Positions 19,687 to 21,670 of a DNA stretch of 64,000 bases are shown one piece after another. Source of the stretch: Dictyostelium discoideum (lineage: Eukaryota); contig CM000152.2 in assembly GCA_000004695.1 (NCBI GenBank), forward strand, positions 4,640,001 to 4,704,000, read 5' to 3'. The notes under the pieces were generated by a model. That model was given only the letters and a program-made list of their open reading frames with translations, ran no database searches and was not told the DNA's origin. Both the position numbers and the translations under genes were made by a program. The number at the start of each line of letters is the position of its first letter. The stretch's first letter is position 1.

Positions 19687-19952
19687 TTTAAAATAAAATA
19701 AAATAAATATTAAACACATTGCATTATTTTGGTTTAAAGTAATAATATTCCTTTATTTTGGTATTTTTAATATTTTTAATTTATTATATTAGCCTAATAT
19801 AGGACTTGATATTTAAGTTTTATTGTTTTTAATATTATTATATAATTTTTTATTAAATTTTTTATTAATATTTTATATTTTTTATAATACCACCAAATAA
19901 GCATATCATCCATATATTCGGGTGGTGATTGCATATTTTCTCCGAAGGGATA

Positions 19953-20012
19953 TCATAGGTTCAACAAGCCTGTATCTACAGAGTGCGAGTCCCATACCTC
20001 GAGGCCTAAAGG
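19953..20012 (+). pseudogene. Truncated, inverted duplicate of the initiator tRNA-Met locus (5' flank plus tRNA 3' half only)
   Basis: tcataggttcaacaagcctg(t)atc(t)acag followed by agtgcgagtcccatacctcgaggcctaaagg matches the reverse complement of 20177-20254, which is the 5' flank plus anticodon/T-arm of the intact minus-strand tRNA. The copy lacks the acceptor/D-arm segment CTTCTTAACTCAGGGGT and has several substitutions. Confidence 0.4.
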
Positions 20013-20113
20013 TGAAGTTAATAATGAGTAAGTTTTATAAATTATAAAATTTAAATTAATTTATTACGTTTTAATATTTTTTTTCTTTTTTTAATTATTA
20101 ATGACTTGGTCAT

Positions 20114-20124
20114 GGAATCGAACC
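20114..20124 (-). promoter_or_regulatory. Candidate external B box (exB) about 31 bp downstream of the tRNA-Met gene
   Basis: The minus strand reads GGTTCGATTCC (plus ggaatcgaacc), a B-box consensus. It does not sit within a foldable tRNA. Dictyostelium tRNA genes often carry an extra B box 20-40 bp downstream. Confidence 0.4.
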
Positions 20125-20154
20125 TGCGGCATAAATTTTTAACAGTAAAAAATT

Positions 20155-20226
20155 TAGCTTCTCTAGGTTTCGATCCTAGGACCTCGAGGTTATGGGCCTC
20201 GCACTCTACCCCTGAGTTAAGAAGCT
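20155..20226 (-). tRNA. Initiator tRNA-Met (anticodon CAT)
   Basis: The minus strand reads AGCTTCT TA ACTC AGGGGTA GAGT G CGAGG CCCATAA CCTCG AGGTC CTAGG ATCGAAA CCTAG AGAAGCT A. It folds with a perfect 7-bp acceptor stem including A1:U72, a 4-bp D stem, a 5-bp anticodon stem with CAT in a 7-nt loop, and a 5-bp T stem with the eukaryotic-initiator T-loop AUCGAAA (A54/A60). No intron is present. Confidence 0.8.
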
Positions 20227-20264
20227 GTTGATTCAGGCTTGTTGAACCTATGATTTTTCTTAAT

Positions 20265-21604
20265 AAATATAGAGCGCAAAAATAAACCAAACCAAATGCT
20301 CGTGTATCACTTTCAAATGGAACACCAGAACGCTATACACCGTCATAAAATCAAACGAAAGGTACCTCGGCTTTGACTTCAACAATAAGGGTATCAAATC
20401 CAAAATCAATACAATCTCAGACAACATCAGAGCTAAACTAGTAACATGGAACTCAACTTCATCAACCTATATGGGCAGACTCATAATGGCAAAAACATAT
20501 GCACTATCTCAGTTAACGTTCCACACTTACATCAACACCACACCACAACACAATAGTATTGAAAATAACATCGTAAAATTCGTTTTCAACACAAAATCTA
20601 AAAACTCTCTTTCACTACAAAGAAGACAAAACAACTATATCAATGGTGGCCTAAACTTATGGAACCTGAAGACAAGAGAACTAGCACAGAAAGCATGGTT
20701 ATTCGAAAGATACCTCCACCAAAGAGTAAGTAACACTCCTAGTTCATATATAAAACTGTGGGAAGAGGAACTCAAAAACAACAACAACAACCAAACAACA
20801 ACAAAACAAAATCAACTACAACTACACTGGCAATGCAAGCAAGCATGGACCCAATTAAAAACTCCACAAAATAAACAAACACACTACGAACACCTCCCAA
20901 AATTAAAAAAAATATACGAGGATATGATGACAACTCAATCTCCTGAACACAACAAATTCATACCAACTCCTGGCCAAAAAGAAATAATGACCAAAATTAA
21001 TAGCAAACACCTTCCATTTAAAGAAATCAAAAAAATAATAAACATGAAAGGTAGAGATCTATTATGGAGATACACACTGAAAGCACTACCAAAAATATAC
21101 AACATGCCATGCCAACAGTGTGGGGAAGATGAGACCTCAGAACATATATTCTTCAACTGCAAAGCCCACATCAAAAACACACAAGAAATCTTCAACTACA
21201 CCCTAACTAAGTGTGGACACACCACTCACACCTGGAATGTGAAGATTTTAAACCATCTACAAATTGCACTAGTAGCCAATTTAATAGCTATTATATTCGA
21301 TAAAATCTGGCACAAAAGAAATAAACTCATTCACGATGAAAAAGAAATAATAATTCACAGACAACAAGTCATACGTGAACTAATTAAAACACAAAGAGCT
21401 GCATGGGACAGGACACAAGCGGTTATAAACAAAACATTAAGAATCAAATCAAAGCAACGGCCAGAAGAACAAAATAAATTAGACTCACTAATCTCGCTAA
21501 AGCTATTACAATTTAGCAGACAATGGAACTCACCTCTTCACGCAATAGAACTTCCTAAACATCTCAAAAAATACAATAATTCACTCAGTACTTTCTATAA
21601 ATAA

Positions 21605-21666
<62 letters not shown>
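20265..21666 (+). mobile_element. 5'-truncated TRE-type (tRNA-gene-targeted) non-LTR retrotransposon: ORF2 C-terminal region plus a 60-nt poly(A) tail
   Basis: ORF 20471..21604 encodes a post-RT region (GGLNLWNLKTRELAQKAWLFERYL) and a C-terminal CCHC-like motif MPCQQCGEDETSEHIFFNCKAHIKNTQEIF typical of LINE-like ORF2. It ends at the stop and runs straight into A60 at 21607-21666. The truncated 5' end lies about 40-60 bp upstream of the 5' end of the tRNA gene, in opposite orientation. Confidence 0.7.

Positions 21667-21670
<4 letters not shown>

Follow-up and report, generated by a model that had tools for sequence, protein, structure and literature searches.

What is the retroelement that lies next to a transfer RNA (tRNA) gene for methionine in Dictyostelium discoideum, where does it begin and end, how might it have arrived there, and does it have anything to do with an inverted half-copy of the same tRNA on the gene's other side? 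These questions are raised by a stretch of 64,000 nucleotides (nt), here called the window (GenBank assembly GCA_000004695.1, contig CM000152.2, positions 4,640,001 to 4,704,000 of the forward strand; G+C about 20 %, A+T 80 %), for which an earlier note, made from the letters alone, had described an initiator tRNA-Met (tRNA-iMet) gene, an external B box, a truncated TRE retrotransposon and a partial tRNA duplicate. With high confidence, the element can be assigned as a young but dead, 5'-truncated copy of TRE5-A.1 at its family's modal integration site beside an initiator tRNA-Met gene, while the half-tRNA is best read as the decayed remains of a duplicate of that gene. Unless a locus is named, coordinates are those of the window.

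The assignment to TRE5-A.1 is based on three observations taken together, namely the order of open reading frame 2 (ORF2), B-module and C-module at the 3' end, an ORF2 remnant that matches a full-length element at 442 of 443 amino acids (aa), and four diagnostic bases in the C-module. Comparison copies came from fetched Dictyostelium loci, among them L001, which is another isolate's transposon-rich region, and L002, which holds full-length elements. Between the two copies of a target-site duplication (TSD), the parts of the insertion are as follows, all given on the plus strand.

20260-20271, plus: left copy of the TSD, TTAATAAATATA (exact 12-mer at the 5' junction defined by alignment)
20273-21604, plus: ORF2 remnant assigned to TRE5-A, 443 codons and a stop (identity to the full-length copy in L002)
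21607-21666, plus: internal A60 tract at the ORF2/B-module junction (same place in other copies)
21667-21960, plus: 3' B-module, 294 base pairs (bp), with a duplicate ORF1 start codon at 21747 (homology to L002)
21961-22093, plus: C-module, about 134 bp, with ...CCAATTC as its last bases (the 3' ends of L001, L002 and L008 align with it collinearly)
22094-22110, plus: true oligo(A) tail, A17 (other copies are homologous up to 22093, and the sequence beyond differs between loci)
22111-22122, plus: right copy of the TSD, TTAATAAATATA, where the original tRNA upstream flank resumes (exact 12-mer)

At the 5' side, homology to the full-length and independent copies in L001 and L002 begins exactly at 20273 by blastn, and from that base the ORF2 frame stays open to a stop codon at 21602-21604. 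The 443-aa remnant corresponds to residues 631-1073 of the full-length ORF2 in L002, and over 1835 bp the element as a whole has 98.3 % nucleotide identity to that copy. Since the full-length element (ORF1 of 444 aa; ORF2 of 1047-1073 aa) carries its Pfam RVT_1 domain at ORF2 residues 423-664, the copy in the window is truncated at its 5' end just inside the end of the reverse transcriptase (RT) domain, and what remains of ORF2 is the end of that domain together with the CCHC zinc-finger region. The domain search of the full-length ORF2 returned RVT_1 and no domain of the long terminal repeat (LTR) type, and neither an LTR nor an integrase was found in the element. The first element base lies at position -47 of the tRNA gene (+1 at 20226), with 46 nt between the two, on the opposite strand and in head-to-head orientation, so that the distance falls within the 40-60 bp that the earlier note had estimated for a 5'-truncated non-LTR ORF2 facing the tRNA 5' end. 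One extra G, at 20272, belongs neither to the target nor to the element. The open frame and the near-complete identity to a full-length element suggest that the copy is young. The copy also appears to be dead and unable to move alone, because the A-module promoter, ORF1 and the endonuclease domain are absent and little of the RT domain is left. The ORF at the site matches D. discoideum protein P0001 with 100 % identity, and a second D. discoideum assembly, GCA_054883475.1 (locus L004), carries the same locus, with the insertion, at 99.2-99.4 % identity. The window is thus nuclear DNA of D. discoideum, and one or more further sequenced isolates or assemblies share the insertion. A homologue search with a neighbouring 389-aa ORF, aimed at the orthologous locus of other strains and a possible empty site, returned no matches.

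The 3' end of the element is less obvious than its 5' end. The earlier note had taken the A60 tract for the tail and had closed the element at 21670. The tract exists at 21607-21666, but it is internal: collinear homology to other copies runs on to 22093 and only then gives way to A17, so that about 440 bp had been cut off and the 3' end falls at 22110. A 60-nt run of A directly after the ORF2 stop does look like the tail of a long interspersed nuclear element (LINE), and nested TRE5-A copies upstream of tRNA genes do occur, as in locus L008, such that the element might be thought to end at 21666 and to abut an older TRE fragment of separate origin, which would begin in its B-module and occupy 21667-22110. 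To that arrangement we assign next to no probability. The order ORF2-A(n)-B-C recurs collinearly in independent copies whose loci are unrelated (L001, L002 and L008), copies in two further loci (L005 and L006) align over the same reference span, and ORF2-BC is the published normal 3' end of TRE5-A.1 (PMC3159450). An A tract stands at the ORF2/B junction in every 3' copy examined in detail (L001 11627-11688; L002 9867-9920) and likewise within the full-length element, between its A-module and its 5' B-module (L002 at about 111-146). Moreover, there is no 5' target duplication at 21667, whereas the exact 12-mer TTAATAAATATA flanks 20273-22110 as one unit of 1838 bp. That 12-mer occurs four times in the window against 0.84 expected, and two of the four occurrences lie exactly at the two junctions. 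The length of the A tract varies between copies from about 36 to 60 nt, and at both the ORF2/B and the A/B junctions these tracts seem to behave like a hypervariable homopolymer within the element.

Beyond the A tract, the window from 21620 to 21958 is 98.5 % identical to L002 101-438, a match that includes the ORF1 start codon (L002 228). In L002 this stretch precedes and begins ORF1 and is itself preceded by an A tract. By this identity 21667-21960 is a B-module with a duplicated ORF1 start, and the full-length element thus carries its B-module 5' of ORF1 as well as at its 3' end. The C-module that follows has a predicted three-stem structure at its 3' terminus (last 54 nt folded, z = -2.65). 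Counted back from C22093, the bases T15, C26, A35 and C38 all match the published bases that were mutated in the TRE5-A.1 C-module, namely C38 and A35 in stem I and C26 and T15 in stem III, numbered from the 3' end (PMC3159450), and all four are paired in the predicted stems I and III.

The published description of TRE5-A.1, formerly DRE, is that of an L1-clade non-LTR element with the structure AB-ORF1/ORF2-BC, a 290-bp B-module containing the ORF1 start and a C-module of 134-137 bp (PMC3159450). The insertion in the window resembles it in its RT end and zinc finger, its 3' untranslated region of B- and C-modules, its oligo(A) and its TSD, as well as in its location at -47 with the 5' end toward the tRNA, its one extra 5' nucleotide and its 5' truncation. 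It differs in missing the A-module, the 5' B-module, ORF1, the APE domain and most of the RT domain, all of which are lost through that truncation, and in having an internal A tract of 60 nt versus about 36-52 nt in the other copies examined. The behaviour of the family matches too: the 5' end of TRE5-A always faces the 5' end of the tRNA, 59 % of copies in the reference genome lie within 47±3 bp with position 47 as the primary site, and non-templated nucleotides are frequent at 5' junctions (PMC5391098), while TSDs measure 10-16 bp (PMC9012585). A parallel case is provided by locus L008, in which a 5'-truncated TRE5-A stands at -48 of a tRNA-Ser(GCT) gene, ends in oligo(A), is flanked by an unambiguous 16-bp TSD (AGCTGTCATCGATGAC), and has displaced an older TRE5-A outward.

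Could the element instead belong to another tRNA-targeting family, whether TRE5-B, TRE5-C, a TRE3 or an LTR element such as DGLT-A or Skipper-2? The question is fair, in that the assignment comes from architecture and published features and the ORF2 domain order is common to all TRE families (PMC5633606). However, the 3' B-module is specific to TRE5-A; TRE5-B and TRE5-C do not have it, and TRE5-B is also without a C-module (PMC3159450). The combination seen here, of a -47 head-to-head position, B- and C-modules and an oligo(A) tail with no LTR or integrase, leaves an origin in any of those families hardly credible. A distant relative in L008 (12405-13149), about 60 bp upstream of a second tRNA-Ser(GCT) gene and with 67 % identity to TRE5-A ORF2, is clearly distinct from the element in the window and probably represents another TRE5 family. 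The ORF proves to be a LINE-type ORF2 and not that of an LTR element, and the earlier note's reading of a TRE5-type, position-specific integration about 50 bp upstream of a tRNA gene is borne out and narrowed to TRE5-A.1 at -47 with a 12-bp TSD.

Within the wider group, TRE5-A.2, a non-autonomous AB-ORF1-BC derivative, has the same B- and C-modules and the same target preference as the copy in the window, but it keeps ORF1, retains little of ORF2 and has lost 72 bp from BC (PMC3159450). The two are therefore opposite in content, the copy in the window having the 3' half of ORF2, no ORF1 and a full-length BC. TRE5-B, TRE5-C and TRE3-A to TRE3-D have a related ORF2 architecture and also target tRNA genes. 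Further afield, Ty3 of Saccharomyces cerevisiae offers a convergent likeness, in that the RNA polymerase III (Pol III) pre-initiation complex (TFIIIB/TFIIIC) marks a safe site upstream of tRNA genes; Ty3, however, has LTRs and an integrase and integrates at the start site of transcription, whereas the element in the window is LINE-type and would have used target-primed reverse transcription at -47. Literature text searches with exact strings from the B-module, the C-module and the ORF1 N-terminus found no match, and the primer list in PMC4559204 holds no TRE5-A primers.

The gene that the element faces is the only tRNA called by ARAGORN in the whole 64 kb. Its parts, together with the flank that separates it from the element, are the following.

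20155-20226, minus: tRNA-Met(CAU), initiator type, 72 nt (ARAGORN, Rfam RF00005, cloverleaf fold, hallmark positions)
20147-20152, minus: Pol III terminator T6, 2 nt past the tRNA 3' end (read from the sequence)
20114-20124, minus (the tRNA strand): external B box (exB), GGTTCGATTCC, 30 nt past the tRNA 3' end (pattern search)
20227-20259, minus: intact tRNA 5' flank (-1 to -33), including at 20234-20254 a 21-nt block in common with the half-tRNA (inverted-repeat search, blastn, pairwise alignment)

The intact gene, which the earlier note had placed on the minus strand at 20226-20155, was recovered at exactly those positions by ARAGORN as tRNA-Met(CAT); it scores 57.7 bits (E=4e-11) against the Rfam tRNA model RF00005, and its minimum-free-energy fold is a cloverleaf. 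An Rfam match to SNORD41, at 18.4 bits against a gathering score of 41, was rejected as chance. Eukaryotic initiators are set apart from elongators by A1:U72, C33, and A54 and A60 in the T loop. All of these can be read from the gene sequence (AGCTTCTTAACTCAGGGGTAGAGTGCGAGGCCCATAACCTCGAGGTCCTAGGATCGAAACCTAGAGAAGCTA), which begins AGC, ends GCTA and has the T loop GGATCGAAACC. The possibility that the gene encodes an elongator tRNA-Met draws on an anticodon stem that holds two of the three conserved G:C pairs (29-31:39-41), with G30:C40 and G31:C39 present and A:U at 29:41, and on an overall identity that is similar to initiator and to elongator sequences and so fails to tell the two apart. It is the hallmark positions alone that separate them, and they are those of an initiator, with GGATCGAAACC in place of GGTTCGAxxCC; the 72-nt length and a gapless alignment to the human and yeast initiators point the same way, such that an elongator is very unlikely. 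The locus is accordingly identified, from these signatures, as one of the initiator tRNA-Met genes of D. discoideum with internal promoter boxes. The genome holds eight such genes (PMC13063481). As the first 45 upstream bases, the internal boxes, the terminator and the exB are all intact, the gene is presumably still active.

The exB that the earlier note had proposed downstream of the tRNA is confirmed. GGTTCGATTCC is the sole match to GGTTCGANNCC in the window (0.02 expected), and its core, GTTCGATTC, starts 32 nt past the tRNA 3' end. The fetched Dictyostelium loci contain 12 other tRNA genes, of which four have the same core at +30 to +32 and others have degenerate forms at a similar offset. 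An exB has been reported at about 80 % of Dictyostelium tRNA genes, and a review gives its distance from the internal B box as about 100 bp (PMC5911963); in the window and in the other fetched loci this distance is about 50 bp. By motif and offset, GGTTCGATTCC is identified as the known exB element of Dictyostelium.

How, then, might the element have arrived? The insertion has the anatomy of a target-primed reverse-transcription product, comprising an oligo(A) 3' end, a 5' truncation, a TSD, an extra base and a canonical site. In the literature, TFIIIC recruits TFIIIB, the TRE5-A ORF1 protein binds TFIIIB subunits and targeting depends on an intact B box (PMC5006619, PMC5633606, PMC5911963). 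Following that scheme, TFIIIC bound to the B boxes would position TFIIIB upstream of the tRNA gene; the ORF1 protein would contact TFIIIB, and the ORF2 endonuclease would nick at about -47. Target-primed reverse transcription would then proceed from the oligo(A)/C-module 3' end toward the tRNA. At this locus the sequence shows that copying ended prematurely, within ORF2 at the RT-domain end, and left the 1838-bp dead copy (20273-22110), with one non-templated G and a 12-bp TSD at the insertion.

Several points weigh against the overall interpretation of a TRE5-A.1 copy beside an active initiator tRNA gene. The TSD consists purely of A and T in a genome that is 80 % A+T, though it is exact at both predicted junctions. 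The family was assigned by architecture, published descriptions and four published nucleotide positions, and not by alignment to a deposited consensus. The gene has A29:U41 in place of the G29:C41 usual in initiator tRNAs. Finally, both the activity of the tRNA gene (by inference or from the literature) and targeting through ORF1 protein and TFIIIB (from the literature) are carried over to this locus and do not come from it.

On the far side of the tRNA gene from the element lies the half-tRNA.

19945-20008, plus: inverted duplicate relic of the tRNA-iMet gene (inverted repeat, blastn, pairwise alignment)

The relic comprises a 5' flank (19945-19979) followed by tRNA positions about 1-2 and 22-50 (19980-20008). 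The earlier note had seen an inverted partial copy at 19953-20012 on the plus strand with an identical 20-bp flank; the inverted copy stands, with its flank now an exact 21-nt block, ATCATAGGTTCAACAAGCCTG, at both 19952-19972 and 20234-20254, and its extent is revised to 19945-20008. The arms of the inverted repeat are 19945-19981 and 20225-20261 (blastn, 30 nt at 93 %, E=1.8e-6), and in pairwise alignment relic and gene have their flank in common from about -35. Within the tRNA part, a 19-nt internal deletion (CTTCTTAACTCAGGGGTAG) has removed the A box, after which the relic body reads AGAGTGCGAG.CCCAT.ACCTCGAGG.CCTA, equivalent to tRNA positions 22-50 with three small differences. Past CCTA, at 20008, similarity to the tRNA is at chance, with 6 of 21 matches in the T-arm stretch, and comparison with the trailer gives 18 of 39 matches, a value reached by 3 % of control comparisons and therefore marginal; any similarity past tRNA position 50 was accordingly rejected. 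The relic is thus without an A box, T arm, B box or 3' acceptor half. Neither ARAGORN nor Rfam calls a tRNA there, and its predicted fold is not tRNA-like. An Rfam match to MIR7533, which scored 23.7 bits where the gathering score is 230, was rejected as an artefact of the inverted repeat.

Is the relic connected with retroelements at all? The earlier note had suggested an aborted integration at the same target, and more broadly the half-tRNA could be a by-product of retroelement activity, through an aborted or rearranged TRE integration or through recombination between elements. The copy is indeed sharply partial, running at 93 % identity up to tRNA position 50 and then dropping to chance, and homology is lost at ~20008, roughly 145 bp past the tRNA 3' end and inside the 40-150 bp window of TRE3 (PMC5911963). 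However, no retroelement sequence, oligo(A) or other A run, or TSD adjoins the relic, so that nothing ties it to a retroelement event. It also lies on the 3' side of the tRNA gene, opposite to the TRE5-A target. Furthermore, same-anticodon tRNA pairs are common in this genome, convergent ones included, and a segmental duplication followed by deletion would suffice. In the fetched Dictyostelium loci there are convergent Phe/Phe and Gly/Gly pairs (L005, L006) and a triple Ser array; copies with the same anticodon have 14-45 nt of 5' flank in common, and pairs are frequent and lie a few kb apart. An origin in retroelement activity is consequently improbable, if less so than the alternatives weighed above for the element and the tRNA. 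Because same-anticodon pairs with a common 5' flank are so frequent in this genome, a decayed inverted duplicate is the simplest reading, and the half-tRNA is best read as the dead, non-functional remnant of a second copy of the gene in tail-to-tail arrangement, a pair member in decay. It resembles the known D. discoideum pairs in having two copies and a common 5' flank, the members of such pairs being a few hundred bp to a few kb apart, and the Phe/Phe and Gly/Gly pairs of L005 and L006 in its tail-to-tail arrangement; it differs in that one partner is a 64-bp relic without promoter boxes.

Gene and relic together make up an interrupted palindrome, whose arms are about 30-60 nt long and are separated by roughly 240 nt. 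It would be highly speculative to view this palindrome as the scar of a TRE3-type rearrangement, or to credit it with an effect of its own, such as a read-through hairpin RNA or a fragile site, and the same small weight attaches to the separate idea that the A tracts within the element record the acquisition of the 3' B-module, for example by a poly(A) template jump.

The neighbourhood and the other loci offered further observations. In the original tRNA upstream flank, a near-palindromic foldback of about 355 bp occupies 22488-22842, with arms at 22503-22582 and 22749-22828 that are 89 % complementary and each contain a T or A run of ~25 nt; it has weak partial matches only in other loci and could be a small foldback element or one akin to miniature inverted-repeat transposable elements. 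Farther along, at ~22981-23968 on the plus strand, ORFs encode just the C-terminal half of an Hsp70, starting at GGSTRIPKIQ, with no N-terminal ATPase half nearby. In GCA_054883475.1, an Hsp70-type gene model (PF00012) starts within the ORF of the TRE5-A 3' B-module. That ORF, of 80 aa (21747-21989, plus), is the ORF1 start running on into the C-module, and both it and the ORF2 remnant (20486-21604, plus) stand in databases as 'hypothetical proteins' (DDB_G0282561 and DDB_G0280833 of strain AX4; ACTFIT_011469); these are transposon-derived gene models. Also in GCA_054883475.1, a 957-aa gene model (L004 6195-9956, equivalent to about 16680-20441 of the window) extends from upstream protein-coding ORFs across both relic and tRNA gene into the beginning of the TRE5-A copy, and looks like an annotation artefact.

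Among the other loci, L002 (1-10350) contains two full-length TRE5-A elements head to tail with one B-module between them (ORF1-ORF2-A(n)-B/ORF1-ORF2-A(n)-B-C), an arrangement consistent with recombination of a 5' with a 3' B-module, or with an effect of the assembly. L003 holds at 8058-10190, after repeated A-module-like units, a TRE5-A.2-like copy from which ORF2 is deleted (reference 1-1799 joined to 4933-5305); no tRNA was found by ARAGORN or Rfam in that 21.6-kb locus.

The insertion of TRE5-A upstream of tRNA genes is a long-described, standard feature of the D. discoideum genome, and the finding is in that sense already known and of little import beyond annotation. For annotation, three pitfalls emerge: the internal A tract of TRE5-A is long enough to be taken for the element's tail, ORFs derived from transposable elements (here the ORF2 remnant and the 80-aa B-module ORF) are kept as 'hypothetical proteins' in current Dictyostelium annotations, and the gene models of one recent assembly cross both the tRNA gene and the element. 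For the family, the locus provides a fully resolved example of TRE5-A integration at the modal -47 position, complete with TSD, extra nucleotide and 5' truncation.

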